Source: Vulcanimicrobiota bacterium
GTDB lineage: Bacteria > Vulcanimicrobiota > Vulcanimicrobiia > Vulcanimicrobiales > Vulcanimicrobiaceae
Reading direction: 5' to 3'
Assembly: GCA_963714015.1 (NCBI GenBank)
Contig: OY970223.1
Coordinates: 480,001-544,000, forward strand
Length of the DNA: 64,000 bases
Shown here: positions 4,228 to 48,859 of the stretch, piece by piece
How the letters are laid out: every line of letters starts with the position of its first letter
How positions within the stretch are numbered: the stretch's first letter is position 1
Notes under the pieces: generated by a model
The model's input: only the letters and a program-made list of their open reading frames with translations
Told to the model about the DNA's origin: nothing
Databases searched by the model: none
Translations under genes and position numbers: made by a program

Positions 4228-5675
4228 TTAGTGCAGCGCCTCCAGCGCTGCCCGCAAACGGCGCAGCGATTCCACTTTTCCTAGCATCTCCATGCCGTCG
4301 AAGAGCGGCAACGAGGTCGGGCTACCGGTAATGGCGATGTAAAACAACCGCGCTACATCCTTGAATTTTACGGTTCCGTCGGCTTGCGCAACACCGCTTT
4401 TGAGGCGTTCGCCTATGGAAGACTGTTTCCAGGACCCGCTTTCGAGCGAGATTAGCGACTCGATCGCGCCGTCCAGCACTTGCTTGGCTCGATCCTCCGG
4501 AACTTTCGGCAGCGCGAGATCGCGCCGGCCGACCTCGGGAGCCTGCGCCAGAAACTCGATCATCGGAGCGACGCCGGCGAGCGTTTCGATGCGCGGCGCG
4601 ACGATGGCAGCGATACGCTCCCGCTGCTCCGCCGGTATCGCGCTGGGCCAAACAAAACCCCATTCCGCCAGAACGCTCAAGAACTCGACGGCAGAAAGAC
4701 GCCGAATCCACTGGCCGTTGAGCCAGTTCAGCTTCGACAAATCGAAAACCGGACCGCCGAGCGCGATGCGAGTCAGTTCGAAGCCGCGCGCCATCCCAAG
4801 GACCAGCGCCGACGGTCCCTCGCACTCGAGCAAATCGGGATTGTCGTTGCGCGAATCGATGAGCACTCCCAAGAAATTGAGCAGCGCTTCCGCCAAGTAT
4901 CCGCGTTCGCGGTAGTAAAGAATGCTCGTGGGGTTCTTGCGTTTGCTGAGCTTGCTCTTGTCCGGATTGCGCAGAAGCGGCAAATGGCAGAGCTGGGGGC
5001 TTCCCACCCGAAGTACCGATAGAGCAAAATGTGCTTTGGCGCGGAGCTGATCCATTCTTCGCCGCGAATCACGTGCGTGATCCCCATCAGATGATCGTCG
5101 ACGACGTTGGCCAGATGGTAGGTCGGGAAGCCGTCGGACTTCATCAGCACCTGCATGTCGACGCTTTTCCATTCGATCTCGATTCGCCCGCGGAGCAAGT
5201 CGGTAAAGACGCAGGTACCCTCTTGCGGCACTTTCATCCGAACAACTCCCGCAAGCCCGGCCTTCTGATTCGCGGAAACCTGTTCGGCGTTGAGTTGCAA
5301 GCAGTTGCCGTCGTAATGCGGCGGCTGCTTAGCGAGCCGCTGATTCTCGCGCATCTCTTCCAACCGCTCGGGCGTGCAGAAGCACCAAAAAGCGTCGCCT
5401 TGCGCGAGCAATCGATCGACGTGCTCGCGGTAAATCGCCGATCGCTCGCTTTGCCTGACCGGCTCACCGCTCCACTCTAGGCCGAGCCACTGCAGCGAGC
5501 GTAGAATCGCGCTCTCGGACTCCGCCGTGCTGCGCGCCCGATCCGTATCCTCGATTCGAAGCACGAACTCGCCGCCCTGACTCTTCGCAAAGCAAAGATT
5601 CACGAGCGCGACGTACGCAGTGCCTACGTGCGGATCGCCGGTCGGCGACGGCGCTACTCTGGTTCTGACACTCAA
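4228..5675 (-). CDS. gltX: Glutamate--tRNA ligase (one apparent missing base at ~4991-4999)
   Basis: [31 protein letters not shown] in one frame; HLPLLRN..KSKLSKR in the next frame; adding one base restores GWEAPQLCHLP. Confidence 0.93.
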
Positions 5676-5836
5676 GATGCGTTAATCCTTATTCCCAGGC
5701 GATCTTGGCGCAAGCGGTTCGCATTGCGGCCACAACGAGCTTTGCGAAGCGGGATTTGAGAGTCCGGACGGGATGCGCGGTTCACAACTCGTTCTTTGAA
5801 AAAACGAGACAGCGGCAAATTTGAGTGGACGTGATA

Positions 5837-6253
5837 TCAGCCCACGAGTTCGCGTCTTTTCCCGCACGCCTCTTGTACGAAATTGATGATGTCCGCAAGT
5901 GGAGCGCCGGGCGTAAAGATCGCTTGCACGCCTTTACGCCGCAGCTCCTCGGCGTCTTCGGGCGGAATCGTGCCGCCGCCGAAAAAGACGATGTCCGCGG
6001 CGCCTTGGGCTTTGAGCTGTTCGACGATCAAAGGGAAAAGCGTCATATGCGCGCCGGAGAGTATGGAGAGTCCGATCCCGTCGGCGTCCTCTTGAATCGC
6101 GGTCTGTACGATCTGTTCGGGGGCTTGGAAGAGCCCCGTGTAGATCACTTCCATCCCGGCGTCCCGCAACGCGCGCGCAATTACTTTGGCGCCGCGGTCG
6201 TGGCCGTCCAGTCCGGCTTTGGCGATGACGATTCGGAGCGGCCGCGAGCTCAT
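5837..6253 (-). CDS. Cobalamin-binding small subunit of acyl-CoA mutase (IcmB/McmB-like)
   Basis: AKAGLDGHDRGAKVIARALRDAGMEVIYTG (DxHxxG base-off motif), GLSILSGAH, FFGGGTIP. Confidence 0.93.
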   Translation of the reverse strand: MSSRPLRIVIAKAGLDGHDRGAKVIARALRDAGMEVIYTGLFQAPEQIVQTAIQEDADGIGLSILSGAHMTLFPLIVEQLKAQGAADIVFFGGGTIPPEDAEELRRKGVQAIFTPGAPLADIINFVQEACGKRRELVG

Positions 6254-11813: not shown

Positions 11814-12436
11814 AGTCGGGCCACATGATGGGCAGCGTGACGAACTCGGTGTACGCGACCTGGTAGAGCAGAAAATTCGATAGACGGTACTCTCCGCCGG
11901 TGCGGATCAGCAGTTCCGGATCGCCGGCGTGCGCTGCGTACATCCGGCTGCGCAGCAGCGTGTCGTCGACGTCCTCCGGTCGAAGCTTGCCGGCGGCGGC
12001 CTCACACGCGATGGCGCGAGCGGCGCGCACGATGTCGTCGCGGCCGCTGTAATTGAGCGCAAGATTCAGCGTCAGCCGGCGATTCGTTTGGGTCGCGCGA
12101 ACGAGATGTTTCAAAGCTGCGCGGACCGGAAGCGCGAATGCGCGGGAATCGCCCAACACCTGAACGCGCACTCCTAACTTCATTAAATTCGCGCGCTCGT
12201 TGTGCGCAAAGAACGCGCAAAGTCTGCATCAGCAGCGTTACCTCGGAGGGCTCGCGGTTCCAATTCTCAGTCGAGAACCCGAAGACGGTCAGCGTCTCTA
12301 TGCCGGCTTCGAGCGCTCCGCGCACCGCCTCGCGCAGTGCGCCGATTCCGCGGCGGTACCCTTCGGCGATAGGGAGACCGCGCGCGGCAGCCCAGCGCCG
12401 GTTCCCATCCATGATGATTGCTACGTGCCCCGGCAT
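11746..12436 (-). CDS. uppS: Polyprenyl diphosphate synthase (one extra base at 12221-12226)
   Basis: PGHVAIIMDGNRRWA, FGFSTENWNR in frame 1; LALNYSGR, LIRTGGEYRLSNFLLYQ in frame 2; CAGACT->CAGCT joins them. Confidence 0.92.
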
Positions 12437-12443
12437 ATTAGTA

Positions 12444-12474
12444 ACTTTGTATCACAAAGTAAATCACAATTCAA
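12444..12474 (-). promoter_or_regulatory. Putative sigma70 promoter of uppS overlapped by a palindrome
   Basis: Minus strand TTGAAT-17nt-TACAAA with TG extension; ACTTTGT-ATC-ACAAAGT inverted repeat 12444-12460. Confidence 0.5.
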
Positions 12475-12513
12475 GCGGAACAAAAGCCTTTCGCGGCCAA
12501 ACCTGTGGCCCTC

Positions 12514-15500
12514 ATGGAACAGGGGTACTATCGTCACGCCGCCGTGGCCGGCGACCGCGTCGTCTTCGTCTGTGAGGACGATCTGTGGAGCGCACCCACC
12601 GGCGGCGGCGCAGCGATCCGCCTCACCGCTACGCCGGGCCTCTGTACCTCGCCGCGCCTCTCGCCCGACGGCACGCAGATCGCGTTCGTGGCAAATGACG
12701 AAGGGGATCCGGAGATTTACGTCATGCCCGCCGCCGGCGGTAAGCCGCGCCGTTTAACCTATCTGGGCGGGACGATCGCAGCCGTATGCACGTGGAGCGC
12801 GGACGGCTCGGAAATTTTTTTCGTCAGCAATCCGAGCGCGTGGTATCAGCGCGAAACCCGCGGTTTTGCGGTGAACGCCGGCGGCGGACCGGTGCGCGAC
12901 CTCGCCCTGGGGCACATGAAATCGTATTTCCCGGGACCGGGCGGCGGCGCCGTCGTCGGCCGTAACGAGACGGATCCCGCGCGCTGGAAGCGTTACCGGG
13001 GCGGAACGTCGGGCGAAATTTGGATCGACCTGGGCTCGGGCGTATTCGAGCGGCTGCGTTTGCCGGACGGGAATGCCGTCTCGCCCATGTGGATTGGCGA
13101 TCGCATCTATTTTCTGACGGATCACGAAGGCATCGGAAATATTTATTCGTGCACGCTCGCCGGTGACGATCTGCGCCGTCATACGCATCACAGCGATTAC
13201 TACGTGCGATTTCCGTCGACCGACGGAAAGCGCATCGTATACACAGCGGGAGCGGCAATCTACTGTTTCGACGTCGAGCGCGACGAGGTCAGGGAACTGC
13301 AGATATCGGCACCGTCCGCGGCACCGCAATCGGCACGGCGGTTCGTCGACGGATCCGATGAGTTCGACGAATTCGTTCCGTCTCCCGACGGAACGCGTGT
13401 CGCCGTCATCGCGCGCGGACAGCCGTTCACGATGCCGCTCTGGGAAGAAGCGCCGGTAGATCGCGGCACCGGGAGCGCCGTACGGCACCGCTGCATCGCT
13501 TGGACCCACGACGGGACCCATCTGGTTACGAGCAGCGACCCCAACGGTTACGAGCAGCTGGCGCTTTACGACGCGCAATCATCGTCGCCGACCGTGCTGC
13601 TGACGAAAGGCGACGTCGGACGCGTCACCGAGATTGCCTGTTCCCCGCGCGGCAACCGCATCGCATTTGCAAATCACCGGTACGAACTGCTGCTGATCGA
13701 CGGCGAGGGCGCGCCGCGCGTACTCGACAAAAGCTTAGGCAATCGCATTACCGACTTGGCGTTTTCGCCGGACGGCCGTTGGCTGGCGTACGTCTGGTCT
13801 CCCGGCGGGGACAACGCGGCAATCGTCCGCATCGTCAAATGCAAATCCGGAAAGGTCTACGACGTCACGCCGCGGATGCGAGTGGATCAAAGCCCGGCAT
13901 GGGATCCCGAAGGACGCTACCTGTACTTCATTTCGATGCGGGACTTCGATCCGGTCTATGACGCGCTGCAGTTCGATCTGAGTTTTCCTCAAGCGCAGCG
14001 TCCATTTCTCGTTACGCTTCGCTCCGACGTTCCCAGCCCGTTCGTTCCCGCGCCCAAACCGGTGCACCGCGAGCACGACCACGAACACGAAGACGAAAAG
14101 AAGAACGGCAAAGCCTCGACGCGGATCGAGATCGATTTCGACGGCATTCAGGGCCGCATTCTGTCCTTTCCCGTGGACGAAGGGGAATACGGGCAGATCG
14201 TGGCGGTGAAGAACCGCGTGTACTTTACGCGATTCGAAGTCCGCGGCATCAAGCCGGGCGATCGTGACTGGAACGGTGAGGAATCGGGTGGAACGCTCTT
14301 GGCGTACGACTTCGACCAACAGCGGTGCGCCGCAGTCGCAACCGACGTATCACGCGTCGTTCTGGGAAGCGATTATCACACGCTTCTTTACAGCTCGCAC
14401 GATCGGCTTCGCGCGATCGATGCTCTGAGCGATCTCCCGGACGAAAACGACGATCTCAAACCGGCCGCGGAGCCCGGACGCAAGAGCGGGTGGATCGATC
14501 TGAATCGAATCAGCGTTGAGATCGACCCTCCGGCGGAGTGGCGTCAGATGTACCGTGAAGCGTGGCGGCTCCAAACCGAGCATTTTTGGGTGGAAGACAT
14601 GTCGGACATCGACTGGGATCGCGTTTTCGATCGCTATGAGACGCTGCTGCCGCGCGTGCGGACGCGCTCCGAACTCTCCGACGTCATTTGGGAAATGCAC
14701 GGCGAGCTCGGAACCTCGCACGCATACGAGATCGGCGGCGACGTGCGGCAGCCGCCCAAGTATCAGCGCGGCTTTTTGGGCGCGGACTTCCGCTACGACG
14801 ATGACGCGCGGGGCTGGCGAATCGCGCGCATCTACCGTGGCGATTCCTGGAATCGAGAGGTGGACTCACCGCTCGCGGAACCGGGCGCCAATCTGCGCGA
14901 GGGCGACGTGCTGATCGCCATCGGGGGTAAAGCTTTGACGCGCGGCTTCGGCCCCAACCAGGCGCTCGTGAACACCGCGGGTCGAGAAGTAGCGCTCGTC
15001 GTACGTACTTCGAGCGGCGAACGCCGTCTGAGCGTGAAGGCGCTCGAAAGCGAACAGGCCTTGCGCTATCGCGCCTGGGTCGAAGCCAATCGCGCGCTCG
15101 TGCACGAACGCTCCAACGGCGACATCGGTTACGTGCACGTGCCCGATATGGGGCCGTGGGGATTCTCGGAATTCCATCGCGGCTATCTGTCGGAATTCGA
15201 TCGCAAAGGCCTCATCGTCGACGTGCGATACAATCGCGGAGGCCACGTCTCGCCGCTCCTGCTCGAGAAACTGGCTCGCAAACGCGTCGGCTACGACGTC
15301 TCGCGTTACAGCAATAAGCCGATGCCCTATCCGCCGGAGTCGGTCGCCGGCCCTATCGTCGCAATCACCAATCAATTTGCCGGCTCCGACGGCGACATCT
15401 TCAGCCATTGCTTCAAGTTGTACGGACTCGGCGCACTCGTCGGCAAACGCACCTGGGGCGGCGTGGTCGGCATCAATCCGTATCACCACCTTGTGGACGG

Positions 15501-15738
15501 CACCATCACGACGCAGCCGGAGTTTTCATTCTGGTTCAAAGACGTCGGCTGGCGCGTCGAAAATTACGGCACCGATCCGGACTACGAAGTCGACATTGCG
15601 CCGCACGATTACCGCGACGGCAAAGATCCGCAGATGGAGTTCGCGCTGCGCCTCGTCACCGAGGCGGCCGCAAACTACAGCGAACCATACCCGGATCTGT
15701 CGACCAAACCGTCTTTGCCTTTACCATCTTTGCCTTAA
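12514..15738 (+). CDS. Tricorn protease homologue (S41)
   Basis: VFVCEDDLW, WKRYRGG, beta-propeller SPDG repeats, GELGTSHAY, PDZ, IVDVRYNRGG, AGSDGD, GKRTWGG, ENYGTDPD. Confidence 0.95.
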   Translation: MEQGYYRHAAVAGDRVVFVCEDDLWSAPTGGGAAIRLTATPGLCTSPRLSPDGTQIAFVANDEGDPEIYVMPAAGGKPRRLTYLGGTIAAVCTWSADGSEIFFVSNPSAWYQRETRGFAVNAGGGPVRDLALGHMKSYFPGPGGGAVVGRNETDPARWKRYRGGTSGEIWIDLGSGVFERLRLPDGNAVSPMWIGDRIYFLTDHEGIGNIYSCTLAGDDLRRHTHHSDYYVRFPSTDGKRIVYTAGAAIYCFDVERDEVRELQISAPSAAPQSARRFVDGSDEFDEFVPSPDGTRVAVIARGQPFTMPLWEEAPVDRGTGSAVRHRCIAWTHDGTHLVTSSDPNGYEQLALYDAQSSSPTVLLTKGDVGRVTEIACSPRGNRIAFANHRYELLLIDGEGAPRVLDKSLGNRITDLAFSPDGRWLAYVWSPGGDNAAIVRIVKCKSGKVYDVTPRMRVDQSPAWDPEGRYLYFISMRDFDPVYDALQFDLSFPQAQRPFLVTLRSDVPSPFVPAPKPVHREHDHEHEDEKKNGKASTRIEIDFDGIQGRILSFPVDEGEYGQIVAVKNRVYFTRFEVRGIKPGDRDWNGEESGGTLLAYDFDQQRCAAVATDVSRVVLGSDYHTLLYSSHDRLRAIDALSDLPDENDDLKPAAEPGRKSGWIDLNRISVEIDPPAEWRQMYREAWRLQTEHFWVEDMSDIDWDRVFDRYETLLPRVRTRSELSDVIWEMHGELGTSHAYEIGGDVRQPPKYQRGFLGADFRYDDDARGWRIARIYRGDSWNREVDSPLAEPGANLREGDVLIAIGGKALTRGFGPNQALVNTAGREVALVVRTSSGERRLSVKALESEQALRYRAWVEANRALVHERSNGDIGYVHVPDMGPWGFSEFHRGYLSEFDRKGLIVDVRYNRGGHVSPLLLEKLARKRVGYDVSRYSNKPMPYPPESVAGPIVAITNQFAGSDGDIFSHCFKLYGLGALVGKRTWGGVVGINPYHHLVDGTITTQPEFSFWFKDVGWRVENYGTDPDYEVDIAPHDYRDGKDPQMEFALRLVTEAAANYSEPYPDLSTKPSLPLPSLP

Positions 15739-15795
15739 GTCCCCAGCGAACTCAAAACGCGTCTCTAGTCCACACCTGCTTAGTAACCTCGGCCC

Positions 15796-15824
15796 TTGAC
15801 GGCAGCAGGCTGCTTTGGTACTAG
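15796..15824 (+). promoter_or_regulatory. Putative promoter of aceA-aceB
   Basis: TTGACG-17nt-TACTAG with TG extension, ~95 nt before GTG 15921. Confidence 0.45.
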
Positions 15825-15920
15825 TTAGAGACTTAGCGGCTCTCATCCAACGGTCCAAAGGCACTCCTCCAATTGGAACGAGCCAATCGTAACGAACGCA
15901 CCAGCCAAAGGAGTTTGAAA

Positions 15921-17219: not shown

Positions 17220-18747
17220 TGCAGACGCTTTCTCGCAACACGATGAACGCCGCGCCGGCGCAGTTCGAAATCCAACGCGATCTGCCGCCCGGCTTTGCTC
17301 AGTTTTACCGGCCGCTGCACGAAGCGTTTGCTGCGCGAGCGCGAGAGCTCGTGGAGGAACGCCGTCACGTCTTGGCGCGAGCGCACGAAGGCGTGCTGCC
17401 GGCGTACTTGGGCGCCGACAAAGGACGCCCGACCGATTGGCGGATCGCTCTGCCCCACTGGTGCCGGGATCAGCGCAATCAGATGACCGGCCCAGCGGAC
17501 GACGCCGAGCTGGTCGTCAAAATGCTGAACTCCGGCGCACCGGGAGTCATGCTCGATCTCGAAGATTCCATGGCCAACACGTGGGATCACCTGGTGCAGG
17601 GACATCGCAATATCGTCGAGGCGCTGTACGGAACGCTCTCGTACTTTGACGCAAAACGAGATGCGCGGATCGGTATAAAGCCTAGCGCAACGGTGATTTG
17701 GAACCGCGTGCGCGGGCTGCACCTCTCTCAAGCCGGAATTTTAGAAGAAACGACTCCCGCGCCGCTATTCGACGTTGCGCTTCTGGCGCACACGATCGAC
17801 CTCGATCGACTGCCGGAAAGAACGCTTTGCCTCTACATTCCGAAATCCGAATCGGCTCAGGAGGCGTTGTGGTGGAGCGATCTCTTCAATGCCGTCATCG
17901 CGGCGAAACGGTGGCCGGCGCAAGCGATCAAATGCATGGCTCTTGTGGAAGCGCATCCCCTGGCGTACCAGCTCGAAGAGTTCACCTTCAATCTGCGCAA
18001 GTATCTCGTCGGGCTGAATTTGGGACGCTGGGACTACATGGCAAGCTTGATTCACTATACGCTCGCCGATCCGGAATGGCTTCTGCCGGATCGGAACACG
18101 ATTCCGGTCGACGTTCCGTTTTTTCAGCGCTTGCGCGCGCTGATACCGGAAGTTTGTCATCGGCACGGCATGCTCGCCATCGGCGGAATGACCGCGCTGT
18201 ATCCCAGCCGTGAAGATCCGGACCTCAACGCTCGAGCCCTTGACGTATTGGCGCGCGACAAGAAAAACGAGGCGGATTGTTTGATGGACGGCGCGTGGAC
18301 CGGGCATCCCGATCAGAATCAGATTGCGGTCGCCCAATTTCCATATCCTAATCAGCTCGCATGCCGGCCGGCGTTCGTCGATCCCAACGCTGATTTGCGC
18401 CCGAAACCGGTTGACGTAGGAACCAAGAGCCTCGGCGGCACGCGTGCTGCAATTCGCACGGTTATCCGGTACCGCGCAGGAGTTCTGAGCGGCAAAGGCG
18501 CCAGTTTGCTGGACGGCTACATGGAAGACCTGGCTACGGACCGCATCTATAGGCTAATGATCGCGCAGCGCATGCGTCATCCCGGAGGTTATACGCCGGA
18601 CTCGCTGAGCGTAAGCTTCGATACCGAGCTGCAGCGAATTCTGAGCGAGTTCCGGCGGGCGCAGGAGACGACGAGCGCGAGCGCTTCAAACGGGCGCGCG
18701 AACTTTCGGAGCAGATGATTCTGCTCGGGGACTTCGACCCGGTTTAA
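17219..18747 (+). CDS. aceB: Malate synthase (A-type, divergent; apparent missing base at ~18648)
   Basis: MTGP, MLDLEDS, LYIPK, LNLGRWDY, AIGGM, MEDLAT; coupled to aceA (TAATG); natural-looking C-terminus PAGAGDDERERFKRARELSEQMILLGDFDPV* lies in the -1 frame. Confidence 0.88.
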
Positions 18748-18828
18748 GGCTGCGTTAATCGTTGCCAGGAGTTGAAGAACTCCCTTGGAAAGTCGCTGCA
18801 AACGCGTCTTTCTAAAGGGAGTTTTTTC

Positions 18829-21412
18829 ATGCGATCCATACTGATCGCCGCACGCGCTTTGGCAATGACCGCTCTGGTTTTCGCTGTCGCGTCGGCCAGT
18901 GGTTTGGCACAAACCCCGAGTCCGGCCGGCGGTTCGGGCAGTATCACCGGAACGGTGACCAATGGAGTCAGCCAAGGACCGGTCGCCAACGCAACGGTGG
19001 AATTGGTCGGCACGGCTGTGGATAAAACGGCGCATTCGGACGCGTCGGGCAATTTTTCGTTCGACGGTTTGGCGGCCGGGTCGTACTCGCTCAAAACTAC
19101 GGCGCACGGATACACGCAGAGTACATCCGCGCCGTTCAGCGTCGGCGTGAACGAACAGGTCTCGCTGGCAGTCGCCCTGCAGCCCGTGAGCGGCGCCGAA
19201 CTGCGCACGATCAGACTCCGTCCGCGTCAACGGCAAGCAATCCGTGAACACGACCAGCACGCCCACCGTAACGATTACAAACCGGCAATTCGTCCAGGCC
19301 GGTCAGGTGCTGGTCGAGCAAGCGCTCGAGCAGACGCCCGGCGTGACGCTCGAGCATTACGACGGCGGACTGGGATCCGTCGCGACCGTTTCGATTCGCG
19401 GCGCCGGCGGCTTTATGCAGGGAAACAACACGGGCTACGAAGTGCTCGTGCTGCAGGACGGCGAGCCGATGCGCAACGGACAGTACGGCGACGCCGACCT
19501 CTCGACGCTGACCCCGTCGATTTACTCTCGCGTCGAAGTGCTCAAGGGCGTCGGCGGCACGTCGCTGTTCGGTGCCAATACGATCGGCGGCACCGTCAAT
19601 CTCGTCACGCGCGACCCGCTCGCCACCGAAGGCGGCCAATTCATCGGCGGCCTGGGCGGATTCGGCACGTTTCACTACGACCTGGTCGAAACAAATACGA
19701 TCGGAAAATTCGGCTATATTTTCGACCTGCACCGGCTGGGTACCGACGGCCCGGTTCCCGGCAGTTTCATCGCCGACTACGTGACGAATACGTACAACAA
19801 CAACAATACGGGCTGCACGACCGCGGCGACCTGCGGACCATTCTGGCATCCGACGCAGTCCTTCGCACTCGAGAGCGATCTCATCAAACTGAAATATCAG
19901 TTCTCTCCGGCCACCTTCCTGACGCTCAGCCAGCAAGGTGAGAGCGACATGCGCGATCAGATCGGCCTGCTGACGAATCCCACGAACGCCTACGGCGGGA
20001 ACGGCAACTACTTCGATCCGCTCGGCTATCCGTATTACTACGGTTTCCCCGGCGACCAACTCTGGAATATTGAACCAAAGATCGGCGCGGATCTCCACAC
20101 GCAAGCCGGCGGCGGCGATCTGATGCTTCGGTCGTACGGCGGCATCTTGGAACGCGTCGACGACGGCAACGGCGAACCCGCCGCAATTTGCTGTTACCTT
20201 CAACGTTCGATCGACCGGCTCTATGGCGACGAAGCGTACTGGACGAAGCTGTTCGGCAACCATACCGTGACCCTGGCGGCGGGAGGAAACGGCGACAGCT
20301 ACTTCTACGGTTCGACCGGGTCGAGCGACACGCCGCTCAATTTCGGCGACATCAATTTGACGAACGGCAAGCAGATCGAACGCACCTACATGGCGCGTGA
20401 CGACTGGCAAATGAATCCGCGCCTCGACATGAATCTGACGGGTTACTACAGCACCTACGACACGCTTCAGGTCAAGCGTTTCGATCCCCGATTGGGTTTA
20501 GTCTATCGGCCCGATCTCTCGACGGCCGTGCGCTTCTCCGCCGCCAGCGGCTTTGCGCCGCCGCGCCTTTCGGACTTGTATAATCCGCTCGACACCTACG
20601 CGGGCGACGCGCTCGCCGACGTGCGCTGTCCGTACAAAGACGGCGTCTACAACGGCTACTGCGTCGCAACGTCCGGCAACCCCAACATCAAGTCCGAGAC
20701 GGCAGTGGGATTCGATTTAGGCGTCGATCACACATTCGGTTTCGCGAACCGCGGTTTGGTCAGTCTGGATCTCTATCGCACCAACTTGAACGACCACATC
20801 TTCTACGTCGACGTGCCTGCGCCGGCCGGGACGGGAAACTTTACCGGCCACGCAAGCCAAGGCGGAAACCCGATTCTCTACGTTCAGGAGCCGATCAATC
20901 TGGCGCATGCGGTGTACGCGGGATTTGAATTCAACGGAGTCCTTCCGGTAACGCACAACTTCTCGCTGACCGGCCTCTACACGACCCAGGCGGCGTATCC
21001 GACGGGCGTCGACCTCGTTACCGAACAGAACGCCGGCGACGTCGTCAACAATCAGCAGTTCCTGGGCGTTCCGGTACACCAGGCGAGCTACGGCCTTCGG
21101 TACGACAACAATGCGGGGGCGTCGGCGTTCTTCCGCGGCGACGACTACATGCAGAACAACGCCTACGATCTGCCGCAGTTTTGGCTCTACAGCGCCGGAA
21201 TCACGGAACCAATGCCGAGCGACAATTCCCTGACCTTCGCCTGGCAGAATATCTTCAACAAAAACTCCCTGATTTTCTCGCAATTCAACGGCGGCGTGCC
21301 GTATCCGGGCGCAAGTCCCTACGGGCCGCTCGGCGAGACTGCTCATCCGGTTAATCCGCATTACATCATGGTCACGTTCACTCACAGTTGGGGTTCGCTG
21401 AGGAACCCCTAG
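18829..21412 (+). CDS. TonB-dependent receptor with N-terminal carboxypeptidase-regulatory-like domain (one extra base at 19212-19217)
   Basis: Signal peptide, GSITGTV..ATVEL..SGNFSF..AGSYSL; plug motifs LEQTPGV, VSIRG, RVEVLKG..SLFGANTIGGTVNLVTR; GNPNIKSE; NIFNK. Confidence 0.9.
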
Positions 21413-21519: not shown

Positions 21520-22609
21520 ATGAAACGCCTCTCCCCGCAGCGGCTTCGTTGGATTCTAGCCGTGATAGCGATCTACAGCGTCGTAGCGGTCTTGATGTTC
21601 GGCTACCATTACCTGAACGACGTCGCCAACGGAACGACGAGCACGTGGGAACGCCGTCTGATCGAAGAGACTACCGGCGTCTACACGGTGTGCCTGCTGG
21701 TTCCGTGGATCGTGTGGGTCGCTCGGCGTTTTCCGCCCAGGCGCTGCCATTGGGCAAGTGTAGTTGCGGCATGGCTTGGCGGCACGATAGTTTTCACGAT
21801 CGCCCACACCACGCTGATGGCGCTCAGCCGCATCGCGATCTACCACGGCTTAGGGCTCGGCCCGTATGACTACGGCATCATGCTTTACCGCTATCCCATG
21901 GAAGCTTCGAACGACGTCCTTTCCTTCGTGGTAGTAGCGGCAATCGTCACGTTCCTAGACCGCCTCCAGGCAGCCCGCGCAGCCGAACTCCACGCCGCGG
22001 AACTTCAGGCGAAGCTGGCCGAGGCGAAGCTCGAGAATTTGCGGCTGCAGCTGCATCCGCATTTTCTTTTCAATACCCTCAATGCAATCTCGACCGTTAT
22101 GTACGAGGACGTGCGAAAGGCCGACGCCATGCTGGCTAAGCTCAGCGACTTCATGCGCATGGTGCTCGCCTCGAGCGACGTGCAGCAGGTCAGCATCGAA
22201 GAAGAGCTCGGCGTCGAGCGAATGTACGTCGATATCATGACCGAGCGGCTCGAACGTCGCCTCACCCTGAGCGTTTCCGTCGAAGGAAGCGCGAGGGAAG
22301 CGTCGGTTCCGTTCATGCTGCTCCAGCCGCTGCTCGAGAATAGCATCCGGCACGGAATGCAGCTCGGCCGGCGACTCGCTCGATCTGCGAATCGACGTGC
22401 GCCGTTCGAACGGTTCAACCGTAATTTGCGTCTCCGACGACGGACGAGGCATCGTACCGGGAACTCCGCGCGGCATCGGTTTGAACAACGTCGAGTCGCG
22501 TCTGAAATACATGTACGGGAGCAGCGCATCCGTCGCTCTCGAACGGCGTAAGTCGGGCGGTACGCAGGCAACGATCGTTTACCCGTATTTGAAAGCTTCG
22601 AAGACGTGA
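21520..22609 (+). CDS. LytS/YehU-type sensor histidine kinase (one extra base at ~22360)
   Basis: Several TM helices, LRLQLHPHFLFNTLNAI, LLQPLLENSIRHG; next frame VSDDGRGI, GIGLNNVESRL, GGT. Confidence 0.9.
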
Positions 22610-23357
22610 GACTGCCTGTATTGGTTGCCGACGACGAAGCACCGGCGCGCCGCAAACTCGCGCGCTTCCTCGGCGCGCATGCCGACGTGGAGATCGTGGG
22701 GGAAGCTTCCAACGGTATCGATGCGGTAGACCTCATCGCGATGACCAAACCGAAGCTTGTCTTTCTCGACATACAGATGCCGGATTTGGACGGCCTCGGA
22801 GTCGCCGAGACCATCGTGCGCCTCGAGCAGCCGCCGTCGATCGTTTTCGTGACCGCTTTCGATCAGTACGCGGTGAAAGCGTTCGAGGTGAGCGCGCTCG
22901 ACTATCTGCTCAAACCGTACGACCGCGAACGTTTCGATCGCACGCTCGACCGCGCACGCACTTCGCGCGAACCCTTCCCGACGCCGGCCGCATTGCCGAG
23001 ACGCTGGCGCAGCTTCGCAACGAGGATCGCTACGTTCGTCGTCTCCTCATACCGAATGAGGGACGCTCGTTCTTCGTTGCAGTGCGCGAGGTTTTGCGCC
23101 TGGAATCACAAGGGAACAACGTGATGGTGCATAGCCGGCGCGGCCTCCACCAGCTTCGCTCGACGCTGGAATCGATCGAAACGCGGCTGGATCCGGCGCT
23201 CTTCGCCCGCGTGCACCGCTCCCATTTGGTGAACATCGACGAAATCGAAGAGATCCGCCCTTGGTTCCATGGCGATTACAAATTGCTCATGCGTGACGGC
23301 ACCGAAATCGCGTGGAGCCGCCGCTTTGCGGCAAAACGTTCGGATTTATTGAAGTGA
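22606..23357 (+). CDS. LytTR-family response regulator (one missing base at ~22960-22980)
   Basis: VADDE, VFLDIQMP, FVTAFDQYAVKAF, DYLLKP; next frame FARVHRSHLVNI, WSRR. Confidence 0.9.
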
Positions 23358-24881
23358 CTGCCCAAGACCGTCCTCGAGGCGAGCAGTTGACGCCGTGGAT
23401 CGCAGCGGCGGCCGTCTTCGCGATCCACGCCGCAGGAAATCCTCACTATGGTTTTTTCCGCGACGAGCTCTACTTCATCATCTGCGGATTCCATCCGCAA
23501 TTCGGCTACGTCGATCAGCCTCCGGTCGTGCCGCTGCTCTCCGCGGGAACGCAGACTCTTCGGCCATTCGCTCTTCCTGCTTAGGCTACTACCGGCGCTC
23601 TTCGCAGCGGCAGGCGTCTACACGACGTGCCTGCTGGCGCTCGAATTCGGCGGCGGCGTCTTTGCGCAGCTTCTCTCTGCGGTTGTGTTTTTCTTCACGA
23701 CCGTGCTGATGAGTTTCGGCATGAAGGTCTCGACGGATACCGTCGGACTCTTCACCTGGCCTCTGCTCGCGTTGATACTGGTACGCATCGCCAAGGGAGC
23801 CGACCAGCGGCTCTGGCTGCTCGGCGGCGTCATCGCGGGCATTACGATAGAGAGCAAATACAGCGTGCTCTTCCTTATTGTCGCGCTCATAATCGGCTTG
23901 CTGCTGACGGCCGAGCGGCGTATTCTTTTCAATCGCTGGTGCGCGGCAGGAGCCGGCATTGCCGTACTCATAGCACTCCCCAACTTCCTCTGGCAGTGGC
24001 GCTTCGGCTTCCCGATGATCGAGCTGTTGAAGGCGGGGCAAAACGGAAAAAATCTCGTTGCCGGACCGCTGCTTTTTTTGGCCCAGCAGCTGATCATTAC
24101 GAACCTCTTCGTCTGGCCCGAGTGGGTGATTGGTTTCATCTGGCTGCTCGCCGCGACGCGCTTCCGCTTCTTGGGAATTGCCTACGCCGTGCTCATCGCC
24201 GAAATGATCGTGTTTCACGGTAAGCACTACTATCCGGCCGACGTTTATCCGACCCTCATCGCGGCCGGCGCCGTTCCAATCGAGCGCTGGACGCGCACAA
24301 GTAGAATTGCGCGCGGCGTCGTGGTCGCGTACGCAACCGTCTTCGGCATCGTCTTCCTTCCGTTCGCGCTGCCGGTACTCTCCGAAAGGACGTTCGTCGC
24401 ATACCAAAATCAAGTCGGAAGGGCCCTACATATTTCGAGATCGGCAACCGCAACGGAAGCCGGCCGTGAAACCGCAGCACTACCCGGCGATTGGGCCGAT
24501 ATGCACGGCTGGCGCCGGATGGCCGCAGCCGTCAAACGCGTGTACGACGATCTACCGCCGCCGCAGCGCGAACGCGCCGTCGTTTTTGCCGGCAACTATG
24601 GTGAAGCCGCCGCCGTAGAATTCTTCGATCCCGGAATTCCCGTGATCAGCGAGCACAATCAATACTATCTCTGGGGAACTCGCGGCTACGACGGCAGCGT
24701 TCTGGTGCAGATCAACGGCTCGTGTTTTCACTCCGACGGGTACTTCAGGTCCCGGACGCTTGCCGCCCGGCTGAACGATCCTTGGGCAATCTCGTACGAA
24801 GCGAACGCTCCGATTTGGGTCTGCCGCGGGATCAGAAAGCCGCTGCCGGAGATATGGCCGGCAATCAAGCTGTACGAATAA
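23354..24881 (+). CDS. GT-C fold membrane glycosyltransferase (GT39/ArnT-PMT-like; one extra base at 23552-23557)
   Basis: YGFFRDELY, FGYVDQPP, multiple TM helices, SKY, LPNFLWQ, NYGEAAA, HNQYYLWG. Confidence 0.85.
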
Positions 24882-26276: not shown

Positions 26277-27122
26277 TGGTCGATCAGTTCTACGACTACC
26301 GGCGCTACCCGCCCGGCCACGGAGCGATAGCGCATGGGCTCGATAATGTCGTGTGCGAACGGCAGATCGGTGAAGCGGTGAACCCGAACCGCTCCCGGCT
26401 TGTGTTTAGACCACTGCTGAATGAGCTGCGAAATGGCGCTGTTGCTCACCGCCGGCTCCCGTGAATTCATTACGACTACAAGCTCCTCGGCTTTAGGTTG
26501 CTCACGGTACGCCGCTTGGAGCAGCTCGTGTGCGATGGTCAGACTGTGGCCTATTGCATGCGATGCGTAGCGCGGATAGCCGTGGGCGGGCTGTTGCCTC
26601 TCGCGCAGAAAGGGATCCCACCACAAAAAGCGGTTGCGGCGCCGCAGCACCCACTTGGCCAAATGCATCCGCAGTGCGTTCGGGACGAACGCGACGCCCA
26701 TGAACGGCGTAACTGCCACCACCCGGTGCAAGCGATGAAATTGACCCAAGTGCGCCGCCAGAAGGCCGCCCAGTGAGAAGCCTGCTACGCAGACCTCTTC
26801 TCCCAGCCCTTGCGCGATCTCGAGCGAGTCGAACGCGCACGCCTTCAGTCTGTCTCGCATTCAGCCGTGCAAGGGCGTCCGAAAGCCGGTCGCTGTATCC
26901 GTGGCGAGGCAAACGCGGAACGAAGACGTTGTGTCCGCGCTCGTACAGCGCCCGCGCGATCGCAACGAACTGATATGGGCTGGCGGAGAGACCGTGAAAG
27001 AGCACGGCGGCGCGTTGCGTCCGGCGGCCGTGATCGAACACAAGCGTGCGCCCCAGTTCGCCGATGCCGCTATGGTCCCGGCGCAAAAAGCGCTCTAGGC
27101 GCTCTTCAGCCTTTTCGTACAT
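26273..27122 (-). CDS. Alpha/beta hydrolase (one extra base at 26846-26852)
   Basis: LFHGLSASP, PRLPRHG; next frame GFSLGG, LWWDP, HDIIEP; CAGACTG->CAGCTG joins frames. Confidence 0.82.
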
Positions 27123-31952: not shown

Positions 31953-31982
31953 AAGTCGAGTAACGTAGGGTACAAGCTGCTC

Positions 31983-32536: not shown

Positions 32537-33143
32537 ATAGCTCGACCGCTCAGAATAAACGACCAGATACGCATCCGCCAAGTGCGCGTGATCGACGATG
32601 ACGGCAGTCGAGCTGGGGATCATGCTTACCGAAGATGCTCTGGCTCGAGCGCGCAACGCCGGTTTGGACCTGATCGAGGTCTCTCCGACCGCACAACCGC
32701 CGGTATGCAAAATAGCGGATTACGGACGTCTCAAGTACGAGCAATCCAAAAAAGACAAAGACGCCCGCAAAAAACAGAAGAACTTCGAACTCAAAGAAGT
32801 GAAGCTGCGGCCGAAAATCGAGACCCACGATTACGAGACCAAGGCCCGCATGGCCGAACGTCTGCTGCTCGACGGAAGCAAGATCAAAGTGACGATCATG
32901 TTCCGCGGGCGCGAGATAACTTATACGAGTTTTGGGCGCAAACTGCTCGATCGCATGGCGGTCGACATGGCGCCAATCGCCATAGTCGAGCGCGATCCGA
33001 AGCTCGAAGGAAAAAATATGTTCATGATCATGGCTCCCCGGCCTACACCGGCCGGACCGCCGAAGTTCTTGTCGATGCACGAGAAAGAACGCGAAAGCAA
33101 AGCCGGAGATCAAGAAGTCAAGAAGGAGCCTACAAGTGCCTAA
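32537..33143 (+). CDS. infC: Translation initiation factor IF-3, non-canonical ATA start (one extra base at 32609-32615)
   Basis: GGGGGT SD then ATA-ARPLRINDQIR..VRVIDDDG; next frame LGIM..LDLIEVSP..PPVCKIADYG, KEVKLRP, IMFRGRE. Confidence 0.93.
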
Positions 33144-39464: not shown

Positions 39465-40500
39465 ATGAGCGGCTTGGATCAACAGCTTAACGGAGCTTAA
39501 AGAACGATTTGAGGAGGCGTTAGGGCGCGTTACGAACGAGCGCGCTTTAGAAGAAGTACGAGTTCGATTTTTAGGCCGCAGCGGCGAGGTCACCGTCTTG
39601 CGGCGCGCCATCGGGCAGCTGCCTGCCGCCGAGCGGCCCGGCGCCGGCAAAGTCGTAAACGAAGCCGTCGCTCATATGGAGCGGCTGCTCGGCGAGGCGC
39701 AGGCAAAGATCGAAGCGCAAGCGTTCGAAGCTGAACTTCAAACGCGGATCGACGTCACGTTCCCCTCGCCTGAGCCTCGGATGGGGACGATACACCCGAT
39801 CCGCCGCGTCATCGAAGATGCGTGCGCGTACTTTCAGCGGCACGGATTCGCCGTCGTTCTCGGACCCGAAATCGAACCGGAATACTACAACTTCGATGCG
39901 CTGAACATTCCGCCCGATCATCCCGCGCGCGAGGGCTTCGACTCGTTTTTCTTGAGCGATAATCTTCTACTGCGCCCGCATACCTCGCCGATGCAGATTC
40001 GCACGATGCAGCAGCAGCGCCCGCCGGTCGCCGTCGTCGTTCCGGGACGCTGTTACCGGCGCGATGCCGTCGACGCGCGGCATTTGTTTCAGTTCGTGCA
40101 AATCGAAGGTCTGCTGGTCGACGAAGGCGTCCACTTCGGTCATCTCAAGGGAATGCTCACCGGTATGTGCCGCGAGCTCTTCGGCCGCGATCAGCAAGTG
40201 CGCTTTAGGCCTTCGTTCTTTCCATTTACGGAGCCGAGCGCCGAAGTGGACACGACGTGCCCGTTATGCCGCGGCGAGTCGACCGAATGCCGCATGTGCG
40301 GCGGCTCCGGATGGATCGAATTGGGCGGATCCGGTATGGTGCATCCTAACGTGCTGCGCAACATGGATTACGATCCCGCCGTGTACTCCGGCTGGGCCTT
40401 CGGCTTCGGCATCGAGCGTTTGGCGCTCGTCCGCTATGACGTCGACGACATTCGGCGTTTCTACGAAAACGCGCCGGACTTTTTGAGGCAGCTCTCATGA
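39465..40500 (+). CDS. pheS: Phenylalanine--tRNA ligase alpha subunit (one extra base at ~39484-39497)
   Basis: MSGLDQQL.. then shifted ELKERF..EEVRVRFLGRSG; NFDALNIPPDHPAR, LRPHTSP, RFRPSFFPFTEPS, GMVHPNVL, FGFGIERL. Confidence 0.95.
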
Positions 40501-45991: not shown

Positions 45992-47357
45992 GAGCGCACT
46001 CCGCGCCAGCTCCAACTACAAATGGTACGCGCTTGCCTCCGTCATGTTGGGGACGTTCATGTCACCGCTCGACGCGAGCATTGCAAACGTAGCGCTGCCC
46101 ACGATTTCTCACGCATTCGGCGTCCCCGTCGACAGCGTCGAATGGGTGCTTATATCGTACATGCTCGTAACGTCGTCGACGCTCGTGCTTTTCGGACGCC
46201 TCGGCGATCTCATCGGTCAAAAGCAGGTGTACATCATCGGCTTTGCGATCTTCGGTCTTTCGTCGCTGGCGTGTGCGTTTGCGCCCGGTTTCGTTGCGCT
46301 GATCGGAGCGCGCGCGGTCCAGGGCATCGGCTCGGCCATGCTCATGTCGTCTAGTCCGGCGATCATCACCGGCGCGTTTCCGGCCTCCCAGCGCGGACGC
46401 GCGATCGGCCTGAACGGCGCCGCGGTCGCATTGGGCCTTTCGATGGGGCCGCTGCTCGGCGGTTTGATCATCACATACTGGAATTGGCGCTGGATATTCT
46501 TGATCAACGTGCCGATCTCGATCCTCGCGCTGCTCATCTGCGCTTTCGTGCTCCGGCGTGAAGAGCGGCAAGCCGAGCGATTCGACTTCGCCGGCTCGTT
46601 CATTGCCTTCACGACATTGCTTGCTCTTTCGCTCGCCCTCTCGCGCGCCCACGTCTGGGGCTGGGGCTCCGCACCGACAATAGTACTGCTCGTTTACGCC
46701 GTCATTGGAGCGTTCATGTTCTACGTGGTGGAGTGCCGCGTGAGCGCGCCGATGATGGATATGGAACTCTTCAAGGACCGCACGTTTGCGTTCTCAGTCC
46801 TCGCAGCGACGCTTTATTTTTGCGCGATGTACTGCGTGATATTCATCATACCGCTGACGGCCCAAACTGCTCTGGGACGAACGGCGTTGCAGGCCGGGTT
46901 ACTGCTGCTTCCCATATCCGCGCTGAACGTAGTTCTGGCACCGGTGGCGGGCGCGCTCTCCGACCGGATTGCGGCGCGCTACATCTCCACAGCGGGAGCG
47001 CTTGTATTCTTGGCGGGAACACTCATGCTCGCCCTTCAGCCGGTGCATCCGGCGATGACGATGCTTTATCTTTCACTCGTGGTCGCCGGAGCGGGCACTG
47101 CAGTCTTCAGTCAGCCCAATAACAGCGCGATTATGGGACACGCGCCGCCAAACCGGCGTGGGATTGCCGCGGGAATTCTGGCGACGGCGCGCACCTCCGG
47201 ACAGCTGCTCGGCGTCAGCGTTGCCGGCGCCATCTACTTTCTTCGTTCGCAGCAACTGGGGCCGCTCGCTCACACATACGCGCCGGCAAAGGACGTATTC
47301 TTCGCGGTCACTGCAATCATGATCGCGGTGGCCGTGGTATCCTTCAAGCGTGAGTGA
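45969..47357 (+). CDS. MFS transporter, DHA2 (EmrB/QacA-like)
   Basis: [40 protein letters not shown]; start approximate. Confidence 0.9.
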
Positions 47358-48859
47358 GAAGCGCGCAATCCTCGCACTCGACCAAGGCACGACCAGCTCG
47401 CGCGCATTTGTTTTCGATCGCCAAGCGCGCATTTTGGGCAGCGCTCAGCGCGAGCTTTCGCAGACCTATCCGCAGCCCGGTTGGATCGAGCATGACCCGC
47501 TGGAAATTTGGAATTCGCAACTCGCAACGGCGCGAGAGGCGCTCGAGCGTTCCGGGATTTCCGGAGACGACGTGGCCGCAATCGGAATCACGAATCAGCG
47601 CGAGACGACGATCGTCTGGGATCGAAAGACCGGTAAACCGTGGTGCAATGCCATCGTCTGGCAGGATCGCCGCACCGCGGGCCTTTGTGCGCAGTTGCGG
47701 GAGCGCGGCCGGGAGGCAATGGTGCGCGAACGCACCGGACTGGTGATCGATCCGTATTTCTCCGCGTCGAAAATTCAATGGATTCTGGAGAACGTCGAGG
47801 ATCTGCGCGAGCACGCCGAGCGTGGGGAAGTCTCTTTCGGAACGGTCGATGCGTGGCTGATCTGGAACTTGACGGCCGGGCGCGCGCACGCTACCGACGT
47901 CACCAACGCGTCGCGGACGATGTTGTTCGACATCCGCAATCTGCGCTGGGACGAGGAGTCTGTCAGCTCCTTCTCGATTCCGCAGGCTATGCTTCCCGAC
48001 GTTCTCCCGACCACGGCGGAATACGGGCGGACCGATAGAGCGCTGTTCGGATCGCCGATTCCGATTTGCGCGGCAGCGGGCGACCAGCAGGCGGCGCTCG
48101 CAGGTCAAGCCGGATTCGCTGAAGGTTCCGCAAAAAACACATACGGAACCGGATCGTTCCTCGTTTTGAATACCGGCGATCGGATCGTCCGCAGCGAGCA
48201 CGGATTGATTGCGACGATCGCCCTGGGATTGCAGCCCGGTCACGCCGCATACGCGCTGGAAGGTTCCGTGTTCGTTACGGGAGCCGCCGTTCAGTGGCTC
48301 AGGGACGAGCTGAAGTTCTTCGAACGAGCAAGTGAAATAGCGGCATTGGCCTCGAGCGTGAGTGACTCGGGCGGCGTATTTTTCGTTCCGGCATTTACCG
48401 GCCTCGGCGCGCCTTATTGGGACCCCAACGCACGCGGGACGATGATAGGACTCACTCGTGGAACGACGCGCGCGCATATCGCAAGGGCCGCGCTGGAAGC
48501 CATCGCGTTCCAAACCTGCGACGTGATCGACGCAATGCGGCAAGACTCGGGCATCGTGCTCGAGGAGTTGCGCGTCGACGGAGGCGCTTCTACGCAACGA
48601 TTTGTTGATGCAGATTCAAGCAGATCTCCTCAACTGCTGCGTCGTTCGCCCTTCCGTCTCGGAGACGACCGCGCTCGGCGCGGCGTATCTGGCGGGCCTG
48701 CAGTGCGGCTTTTGGCCCGACGTCGAGTCGATCGTCTCCCACTGGAAAGAGGCCGCGCGGTTCGAGCCGCACATCTCCGAAGATCGACGCGCTGCGGCGC
48801 TTAAGCATTGGCGGCGCGCCGTCGAGCGCGCGCGCGGCTGGATTGCCGACGGAGAATGA
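47350..48859 (+). CDS. glpK: Glycerol kinase (one extra base at ~48590)
   Basis: [54 protein letters not shown]; next frame [15 protein letters not shown]. Confidence 0.95.

Follow-up and report, generated by a model that had tools for sequence, protein, structure and literature searches.

The window analysed here, a stretch of 64 000 nucleotides from the 3.56 Mb genome G000, carries 11 genes interrupted by single-base shifts, and the letters reported for these breaks by an earlier sequence-only reading matched the assembly at all 11 sites. G000 is a single-contig, long-read-only metagenome assembly from soil, assigned to the Baltobacteraceae after the names attached to its nearest methyltransferase homologues, and a genome of the same genus (G001) was used for comparison. 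Three-frame translation and Pfam searches showed each gene to be split or truncated at the following places:

4991..4999, minus strand: gltX; a run of five C where six are expected, adjoining AGCT; -1 shift
12221..12226, minus strand: uppS; AGTCTG on the plus strand, CAGACT on the coding strand, one base too many; +1 shift
18647..18651, plus strand: aceB; GAGTT, which is AGCT minus one base; -1 shift
19212..19217, plus strand: TonB-dependent receptor; CAGACT with one A too many; +1 shift
22359..22376, plus strand: LytS-type histidine kinase; extra base (22360) immediately 5' of AGCT; +1 shift
22945..23044, plus strand: LytTR response regulator; one base missing, with 15 near-equivalent positions; -1 shift
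23552..23557, plus strand: GT39/PMT_2 glycosyltransferase; CAGACT with an extra base; +1 shift
26846..26852, minus strand: alpha/beta hydrolase; CAGTCTG on the plus strand, CAGACTG on the coding strand, one base too many; +1 shift
32609..32615, plus strand: infC; CGAGCTG with an additional G 5' of AGCT; +1 shift
39484..39497, plus strand: N-terminal part of pheS; between two AGCT sites near the start codon, exact position not placeable; +1 shift
48588..48594, plus strand: glpK; TCTACGC with an extra base; +1 shift

The domain matches follow these breaks closely. Prenyltransf of uppS is divided into profile positions 1-95 and 81-219, the catalytic domain of gltX lies in one ORF for positions 2-229 and in another for 219-290, and FGGY_C of glpK is divided into 2-163 and 164-196. 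The frame downstream of the break in the TonB receptor holds the plug and barrel domains, and in both infC and pheS the N-terminal end is out of frame, the Phe_tRNA-synt_N match of the latter beginning only at profile position 24. The four genes said to share the lesion CAGACT (uppS, TonB receptor, GT39 and hydrolase) indeed all carry an extra base on the coding strand and a +1 shift. At the corresponding places the G001 orthologues read CAGCTC in the TonB receptor and CAACTG (Q-L) in the hydrolase, the latter compatible with CAGCTG. For infC, the G001 orthologue reads GTCAGCTC at the break, and in the alignment one position alone scored best, namely the G in tcGagct. For GT39, comparison with a G001 ORF, suggested to be a paralogue, placed the extra base within a few nucleotides (the T or C following CAGAC scored highest), and this break was assigned to the AGCT class because CAGACT is in genome-wide excess at such junctions. 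The remaining sites are less clear-cut. The gltX break does abut AGCT, as had been proposed, but it is a homopolymer deletion (C5 for the C6 of the G001 orthologue) and AGCT is not needed to explain it. A blastn search gave no G001 match at the pheS break, and the repair of LytTR from CACT to CAGCT at 22959-22962 is possible. The break in glpK lies at TCTACGC and has no AGCT, as had been noted; its context recurs in the genome, with CTACGC/GCGTAG in 5 junctions against 0.87 expected.

Contigs from public reads revealed that these breaks belong to the assembly and not to the organism. A public soil metagenome run (X1) yielded short-read-like contigs, at a depth of only 2-3, which were 99-100 % identical to the window outside the differences described here. 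The comparison spanned 20 kb, with infC, pheS, glpK and gltX lying outside it, and none of the runs X1-X3 usably covered GT39, the hydrolase or LytTR, so that 4 of the 11 sites were covered. Five indel differences were seen in the 20 kb, and four of these fell exactly on sites predicted earlier. Three restored AGCT: base 12223 is absent in uppS, giving AGCTG; a C is inserted behind 18649 in aceB, which is the predicted repair of GAGTT to GAGCTT and yields E-L-P-A, the same residues as in the G001 orthologue; and base 19215 is missing from the TonB receptor. The fourth removed the base beside AGCT in LytS (22360). LytS also has a second lesion, a swap of GA for AG at 22373-22374 that masks another AGCT; the X1 contig reads A and G here, turning CGACT into CAGCT. 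The claim that the indels are consensus errors, for which read mapping had been proposed as the check, is thus borne out at all four covered sites: the genes of the window are intact, AGCT stands in the organism's own DNA, and the breaks are mistakes of the long-read assembly.

The opposite view is that the indels are real, as hundreds of pseudogenes or through recoding or editing that reads through AGCT-linked frameshifts. Only the assembly itself speaks for it. The breaks would hit infC, pheS and gltX, which are normally essential; they are single-base shifts with no piled-up stops and with coding signal kept in both frames; and their orientation relative to the gene is mixed (43 sense, 38 antisense). 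Together with the read contigs, which lack the indels at the four covered sites and led us to reject this view, these observations make it extremely improbable.

Clustering on AGCT had been proposed from the window, and it was found across the genome by two independent detectors. A codon-usage scan of the full 3.56 Mb for frame changes returned 826 insertion-type clusters, among which CAGACT (43 clusters) and AGTCTG (38), each with 4.3 expected, were the two most enriched hexamers; AGACT/AGTCT occurred in 116 clusters against 29.0 expected. The second detector, a tblastn search with G001 ORFs, found matches for 732 ORFs and 133 unique frameshift junctions, approximately 114 of insertion type and 20 of deletion type (counted on 134, before removal of a duplicate). 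For the 111 insertion junctions localized to ≤16 nt, removal of one base makes AGCT in 34, compared with a mean of 4.9 and a maximum of 9 at shifted positions. Including an intact AGCT ≤2 nt away raised this to 58 of 111 (null mean 8.1, maximum 17), and AGCT ranked first among all 256 tetramers. Deletion-type junctions showed no significant association with AGCT (9 of 18, null mean 6.0). The genome therefore carries roughly one frameshift per five to six genes, mainly single-base insertions, and AGCT accounts for approximately half of the insertions. The 53 insertion junctions away from AGCT were searched for a second motif and gave weak signals (CTTGC/GCAAG, 7 against 1.9; CGATCG, 5 against 1.0), none convincing after multiple testing.

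The errors take a few recurrent forms: at the dyad they read AG[A/T]CT, elsewhere in the motif A[G]GCT or AGC[C]T, and in other cases the additional base lies immediately next to the motif; deletions of C and a GA/AG swap were seen as well. Of the 114 unique AGACT/AGTCT sites, 59 fall on one assembly strand and 55 on the other, the balance that a palindromic target should give. AGACT is in excess behind all four 5' bases, and the bases 3' of it (C 39, G 34, T 35, A 6) match the background and show no preference, so the core motif is AGCT and not CAGCTG. These flank counts, and GAGCTT in aceB, ruled out the PvuII-type motif that had been suggested, as there is no preference for G 3' of CAGACT.

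Equal errors on both strands of a palindromic tetramer would be expected from a Type II-like methylation target, and comparison across the family was consistent with a modification. In seven other family assemblies of low contig number, each bearing an orthologue of a methyltransferase described below, 812 query ORFs yielded 83 valid junctions; 32 of their 52 insertion junctions were AGCT-type against 5.7 expected (13 of 19 in G007 and 2 of 2 in G017). Five comparably error-prone family assemblies lacking the orthologue, sampled at one conserved gene, gave 22 frameshift events, 21 of them insertions and none AGCT-type. Fisher's test on AGCT-type insertions (0/21 against 90/163) gave p = 3e-7, a value that treats kin as independent when they are not. 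The AGCT hot spot hence tracks the orthologue across genomes, in an association confounded by descent, with orthologue-bearing genomes forming a single subclade, possibly confounded by who sequenced what, and with negatives drawn from one gene. Three orthologue-negative assemblies of low contig number (G006, G015 and G011) were dropped as negative controls, as they contain next to no errors (114, 100 and 128 queries gave 0, 0 and 4 junctions, respectively) and are hence uninformative on the motif, and small pieces of G058, G062 and G066 gave matches for only 34 queries.

A base caller, assembler or polisher might also err at AGCT k-mers with no modification involved, visibly wherever coverage is low. 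Insertions do dominate in general, in 21 of the 22 events in genomes that have no hot spot and in 114 of the 134 junctions of G000; the contexts CTACG and GCTTG recur in several assemblies, including orthologue-negative ones; and about half of the G000 frameshifts lie away from AGCT. In orthologue-bearing assemblies, too, 51 of the 83 valid junctions lie away from AGCT, so that a general proneness to error has to be reckoned with as well. Such an error would nevertheless have to spare AGCT in all 22 events of the five error-prone assemblies, yet to strike it at 58 of the 111 G000 insertion junctions and at 32 of 52 among the relatives, and to fall evenly on the two strands, and we consider it unlikely as the source of the hot spot. 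Our preferred reading, to which we give a probability of roughly 0.7, is that the errors piled on AGCT over intact genes most likely stem from AGCT methylation, with a CcrM-like candidate as the enzyme. The modification proposed from the window alone is supported by inference only, through the cross-genome association, and its chemistry and enzyme are likewise inferred. On this reading, AGCT in this organism would be methylated on both strands, altering the signal so that it is misread at base calling or polishing.

As had been anticipated, the window holds no candidate for the modifying enzyme, and a methyltransferase search of G000 found candidates elsewhere, including C5, beta-class and D12-class enzymes. 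The first two lie at:

1,044,674-1,045,630 of G000: orphan beta-class amino-methyltransferase (DPPY motif, CcrM-like; PF01555)
~2.072-2.076 Mb of G000: C5 restriction-modification locus; controller protein, C5 methyltransferase with an N-terminal HTH, and a putative 338-aa endonuclease

Enzymes of the M.AluI type (m5C at AGCT) or M.PvuII type (m4C in CAGCTG) had been named as models. Both resemble the present case in having AGCT-containing palindromes as targets, and the error motif here, unlike the M.PvuII target, is not confined to CAGCTG. An M.AluI-like origin would place the source of the errors in m5C laid down by the organism's own Type II locus. Its methyltransferase is intact (475 aa; PF00145 at 195 bits) and is flanked by an HTH protein and by a convergent ORF of a sporadic, unannotated family; m5C at AGCT is described for Actinomycetales (PMC11275837). 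AGCT is also lower in G000 than in G001 (observed/expected 0.80 against 0.89), but we rejected this as a sign of restriction pressure, the difference being too small and confounded by the errors themselves. The putative endonuclease matched no Pfam or NCBIfam family and no solved relative, its 53 homologues besides itself are all unnamed or hypothetical, and it was not found in G001, G006, G008, G011 or G017. The only intact C5 methyltransferase/restriction locus is thus private to G000 among the genomes searched, whereas the hot spot also occurs in G007 and G017, neither of which has a PF00145 match. This rules the locus out as the shared cause, disagrees with the M.AluI-type suggestion, and leaves m5C from this locus a highly improbable origin of the errors. 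Nothing pointed to the more exotic modification that had also been raised.

The best candidate for setting an AGCT mark, as judged from sequence, is the orphan beta-class enzyme. It scores 124 bits against PF01555 (gathering cut-off 26.7), carries VTDPPYG near its N terminus and has CcrM as its closest solved structure (6pbd, E 9e-22), and no endonuclease-like gene was found adjoining it. Its score against the CcrM equivalog NF050803 (NCBIfam) is 99.4 bits, below the cut-off of 830, and it is accordingly a relative of CcrM and not CcrM itself. Orthologues at 59-76 % identity were present in 25 of the 214 family genomes searched and fill whole genera (7 of 7 genomes in g30, 3 of 3 in g28). CcrM of Caulobacter is a beta-class N6-adenine methyltransferase that acts on GANTC and is vertically inherited in Alphaproteobacteria. 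The candidate shares its class, the DPPY motif and vertical inheritance through genera, but its predicted target is AGCT. GANTC was considered as the true motif and set aside: GACTC/GAGTC showed a mild excess (8 junction windows against 2.4 expected), six junction windows hold AGACTC/GAGTCT, which contains it, and GANTC is not enriched in its own right. The DPPY motif suggests an N6-adenine enzyme, and the AGCT-targeting enzymes known to us act on cytosine; M.PvuII and the candidate share an amino-methyltransferase superfamily. The assignment is not unique, since a D12-class methyltransferase is common to G000 and all five orthologue-bearing genomes searched. This second candidate was also found in G300 and partly in G260, and not in G198, G281 and G299, a distribution that neither favours nor disfavours it as the cause.

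Errors tied to Dam (GATC), Dcm (CCWGG) and CcrM (GANTC) in nanopore data are similar in that they follow one short, organism-specific motif, break otherwise intact genes and are gone in accurate reads; they differ in that the motif here is AGCT and most errors are one-base insertions. Modification-induced, strand-specific errors are described as outlasting polishing in nanopore assemblies, and those described there are mainly substitutions (C-to-T, G-to-A) and not insertions (PMC11610603). PCR reads are described as rescuing modification-linked errors (PMC11649196), and methylated AGCT is recorded by SMRT sequencing for Thaumarchaeota (PMC8919816). Our literature search found no paper naming AGCT as an error motif, and the part of it devoted to AGCT methylation gave no methylome data for this uncultured soil lineage. 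The artefact is hence of a known kind, and what is new is the motif AGCT and a candidate enzyme conserved in a clade.

In summary, G000, a species-representative genome, has false breaks in approximately 18 % of the genes tested (133 junctions across 732 genes), and at least seven related representative genomes have the same defect. Frameshift errors of this kind depress completeness estimates (89.6 % for G000), and downstream scans would gain false pseudogenes, falsely missing essential genes and false novelty. The errors are predictable, taking the form of one additional A/T or G/C within or next to AGCT, and could be marked, or corrected by means of short reads or recalling with a methylation-aware model. 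The footprint also serves as a free methylome hint, pointing, for an uncultured soil lineage, to AGCT methylation and to an orphan methyltransferase that is conserved. Tentatively, and with less confidence than in the methylation itself, we suggest that the orphan CcrM-like methyltransferase, passed on vertically, may place m6A or m4C on all AGCT sites within one subclade of the Baltobacteraceae (Eremiobacterota). If true, this would be a lineage-wide epigenetic mark of the kind set by CcrM or Dam, on a target so far undescribed for enzymes of this class, discovered solely through the errors it left in long-read assemblies.

Our study found that the frameshifts of the window are assembly artefacts and that the genes they interrupt should be read as intact. 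All eleven lesion sequences in the window were recovered as first described when their coordinates were re-read. Three-frame translation placed a one-base frame change in each of the 11 genes, caused by an extra base in 8/11 breaks and by a missing base in gltX, aceB and LytTR. Pfam confirmed the identities and splits of the genes, which are listed with the changes seen in contigs of X1, a public soil-metagenome run with short-read-like contigs.

Broken genes of the window (identity by Pfam; X1 difference where a contig covers the site)
gltX: glutamyl-tRNA synthetase; one ORF matches profile positions 2-229, the other 219-290
uppS: undecaprenyl-diphosphate synthase; profile positions 1-95 and 81-219; X1 omits base 12223 (AGTCTG to AGCTG)
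aceB: malate synthase; X1 adds C behind 18649 (GAGTT to GAGCTT)
TonB-dependent receptor; X1 omits base 19215 (CAGACT to CAGCT)
LytS-type kinase; X1 omits base 22360, directly before AGCT
LytTR: response regulator
GT39: PMT_2 glycosyltransferase
Alpha/beta hydrolase
infC: IF-3
pheS: PheS
glpK: glycerol kinase; profile positions 2-163 and 164-196

A search of public runs located parts of the stretch in three soil-metagenome runs of one study, and their contigs were aligned to window 12150-32149. The X1 contigs, with a depth of only 2-3, were short, mostly 99-100 % identical to this region and carried five indel differences. Four of these coincided exactly with lesions picked out by the sequence-only reading, and the absence of the indels from X1 at uppS, aceB, the TonB receptor and LytS bears out its view that they are errors rather than mutations. 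Usable contig cover was lacking at GT39, the hydrolase and LytTR, while infC, pheS, glpK and gltX lie outside the aligned 20 kb. The LytS contig also has AG where the window has GA (22373-22374), converting CGACT to CAGCT, so AGCT also suffers substitution-type errors that leave the frame unchanged. The fifth indel, at 15919, is intergenic, and its contig (15886-16148) holds 10/264 other differences and therefore derives from a related strain; such a strain of the same organism is thus present in the X1 soil metagenome.

Orthologues in G001, a comparison genome of the same genus (60 contigs, ~77 % nucleotide identity), read CAGCTC at the TonB site and CAACTG (Q-L) at the hydrolase site. At the infC site G001 has GTCAGCTC, which identifies the G as the extra base, as had been proposed. 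The gltX break does adjoin AGCT, but the six C of the G001 orthologue show it to be a homopolymer deletion merely abutting the motif.

The clustering of frameshifts on AGCT proved correct and highly significant across the source genome G000 (a single contig of 3,562,638 bases, 61 % G+C, marker completeness 89.6 %), as determined by two independent detectors. The first was a codon-usage log-likelihood scan for coding signal that switches frame on the same strand, which returned 826 insertion-type (extra base) and 847 deletion-type (missing base) clusters, the majority being ordinary gene junctions. The top two hexamers of the insertion-type clusters were the complementary pair CAGACT (43 vs 4.3 expected) and AGTCTG (38 vs 4.3 expected); AGACT/AGTCT occurred in 116 clusters against 29.0 expected and intact AGCT in 169 against 109.2. 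No AGACT/AGTCT-like motif was seen in the 847 deletion-type clusters, where ATGA-type gene overlaps prevail.

For the second detector, ORFs from 1.07 Mb of G001 were translated and searched against G000 by tblastn, and each junction was placed by comparing the scores of all single-base repairs against the protein of G001. The 732 matching ORFs yielded 134 junctions (133 without one duplicate), 114 insertion-type and 20 deletion-type. Removal of one base created AGCT at 34 of the 111 insertion junctions placed to ≤16 nt (mean 4.9, maximum 9, in a null of 28 shifted positions), and 58 of 111 were AGCT-type once intact AGCT ≤2 nt away was included (null mean 8.1, maximum 17), with AGCT ranking first of 256 tetramers. 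These 58 comprised AGACT/AGTCT (17), AGGCT/AGCCT (8), AAGCT/AGCTT (5), AGCAT (3), ACGCT (1) and an extra base adjoining intact AGCT (24). Deletion-type junctions had no significant link to AGCT (9/18, null mean 6.0). Extrapolated to the whole genome, ~18 % of genes are interrupted, with AGCT linked to about half of the insertions.

The flanks of the lesions defined the motif. Unique AGACT/AGTCT sites in frameshift clusters (n=114) were divided 59:55 by assembly strand, and a list of 81 CAGACT sites, including a few duplicates, was divided 43 sense to 38 antisense relative to the gene. All four bases were in excess 5' of AGACT, with C favoured (78/114): ~11.6 per 1000 CAGCT sites, compared with 1.4-2.1 where the 5' base is G or A. 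On the 3' side no base was preferred, the counts (C 39, G 34, T 35, A 6) matching background. The palindrome AGCT, rather than CAGCTG, is therefore the core, and the inserted base lies at its dyad; an M.PvuII-like CAGCTG target, one of two that had been suggested, was rejected on the 3' flank counts. The observed/expected ratio of AGCT itself is 0.80 in G000 and 0.89 in G001.

We infer, with a probability of about 0.7, that DNA modification at AGCT is the best explanation of this hot spot. The sequence-only reading had proposed such a modification, and its placing of the artefacts on AGCT held, whereas the AluI- or PvuII-type enzyme that it mentioned was not supported. G000 encodes several methyltransferases, and no Type I/IIG N6_Mtase above cut-off.

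Methyltransferase genes of G000 and their neighbours
1,044,674-1,045,630: orphan beta-class methyltransferase, 319 aa, DPPY motif
2071930-2075955 (L051): intact C5 methyltransferase (about 2,073,055-2,074,482), 475 aa, with an HTH at the N terminus; its neighbours are an HTH controller-like gene (113 aa) and, in convergent orientation, an ORF of 338 aa, a putative endonuclease of a sporadically distributed family
2677062-2684396 (L052/L054 region): second C5 methyltransferase, frameshift-split, C-terminal motif in another frame; beta-class methyltransferase of 244 aa ~4 kb away
Further beta-class methyltransferase, frameshifted
17,386-18,048: D12-class methyltransferase

The nearest solved relative of the orphan enzyme is CcrM (6pbd, E 9e-22), although its score falls far below the CcrM equivalog cut-off. 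L051 is a plausible candidate Type II restriction-modification locus; its 338-aa ORF had no Pfam, NCBIfam or PDB relative, and its 53 homologues are all unnamed or hypothetical and spread over distant phyla. The L052/L054 region looks prophage-like, judged only from small ORFs without a family match. Targets cannot be read from sequence alone, and relatives were therefore used as a natural experiment.

Orthologues of the orphan enzyme (59-76 % identity) were found in 25/214 family genomes searched, a tally that takes in the unpublished genome G188, and occupied whole genera; their closest database homologues carry the names Candidatus Baltobacteraceae and Rubrimentiphilum. The tblastn test was repeated on 100-200 kb of each of seven further orthologue-bearing low-contig assemblies (G007, G008, G017, G203, G116, G176 and G240), a junction being valid only if the frame truly breaks in the subject. 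From 812 query ORFs, 83 valid junctions were obtained; AGCT-type sequences accounted for 32/52 insertion junctions (5.7 expected), and 18 of the 32 were AGCT with a single base inserted (2.0 expected). No C5 methyltransferase was found in two of these hot-spot assemblies, G007 and G017, and searches of five relatives did not recover the putative G000 endonuclease. The private restriction-modification locus of G000 thus cannot be the common cause, and the M.AluI-like C5 enzyme that had been put forward is set aside with it.

Of the orthologue-negative low-contig assemblies, G006, G015 and G011 gave 0, 0 and 4 junctions and, being nearly error-free, are uninformative on the motif. A tricorn-protease homologue, intact in the window (12505-15738, 1077 aa; PD40 propeller, Tricorn_C1, PDZ_Tricorn and Peptidase_S41 by Pfam) and matched in 229/231 family genomes searched, is a handy long probe for assembly frameshifts. 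The gene lies in 3-7 pieces in G198, G281, G299, G260 and G300, all low-contig, low-completeness assemblies in which the orthologue is absent (best match ≤33 % identity). Frameshift-aware alignment of ~200 nt around the breaks to the G000 protein identified 22 events (21 insertions), and none of the 22 had an AGCT-type sequence within 10 nt (local background 0.079 per window). The contrast of 0/21, from one gene only, with 90/163 in orthologue-bearing genomes was significant (Fisher test, p = 3e-7). Insertion-rich error is thus a general property of these assemblies, whereas the AGCT hot spot belongs to genomes carrying the orphan enzyme, which form one subclade and are not independent.

The clade-conserved orphan CcrM-like methyltransferase is more likely to be the modifying enzyme than one of AluI or PvuII type. 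The D12-class methyltransferase is a second candidate: it occurs in G000 and in 5/5 orthologue-bearing genomes searched; G300 likewise has it and G260 has part of it, but it was not found in G198, G281 or G299.

Other error contexts were also observed. One-base insertions recur in a second context, CTACG, frequently as TCTACG, found at glpK (window 48588-48594) and at G000 479135, 952228 and 3040743; CTACGC/GCGTAG occurs in 5 G000 junctions vs 0.87 expected, and CTACG insertions also occur in G008, G240 and G299. GCTTG(C) recurs at G000 insertion junctions (1282355, 2417324, 2746308 and 3319733), with CTTGC/GCAAG at 7 vs 1.9 expected. In orthologue-negative assemblies its form is GCTTGATC, at the same orthologous tricorn-protease site in G281 (L172) and G260 (L178), with GGATTGATC as the variant in the G300 gene. 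In the five orthologue-negative assemblies GATC lay ≤10 nt from 9/22 events (L168-L182; p = 0.011 against a local background of 0.18), and a single orthologous site accounts for three events. This proximity may indicate a different methylation motif; of the five, only G300 and, in part, G260 were found to have a D12-class enzyme.

Modification-induced, strand-specific errors persist into nanopore assemblies, according to one report (PMC11610603), in which C-to-T and G-to-A substitutions predominate, whereas those of G000 are mostly insertions. Further papers discuss native vs PCR libraries (PMC11649196) and describe methylated AGCT in Thaumarchaeota by SMRT sequencing (PMC8919816) and m5C at AGCT in Actinomycetales (PMC11275837). 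AGCT was not found named as an assembly-error motif in searches of the literature on nanopore and methylation errors or on AGCT methylation, supplements aside. This kind of artefact is already known; what is new here is the AGCT motif, for which there is a candidate enzyme. The finding has practical weight for users of these representative genomes, and its biological interest is modest.
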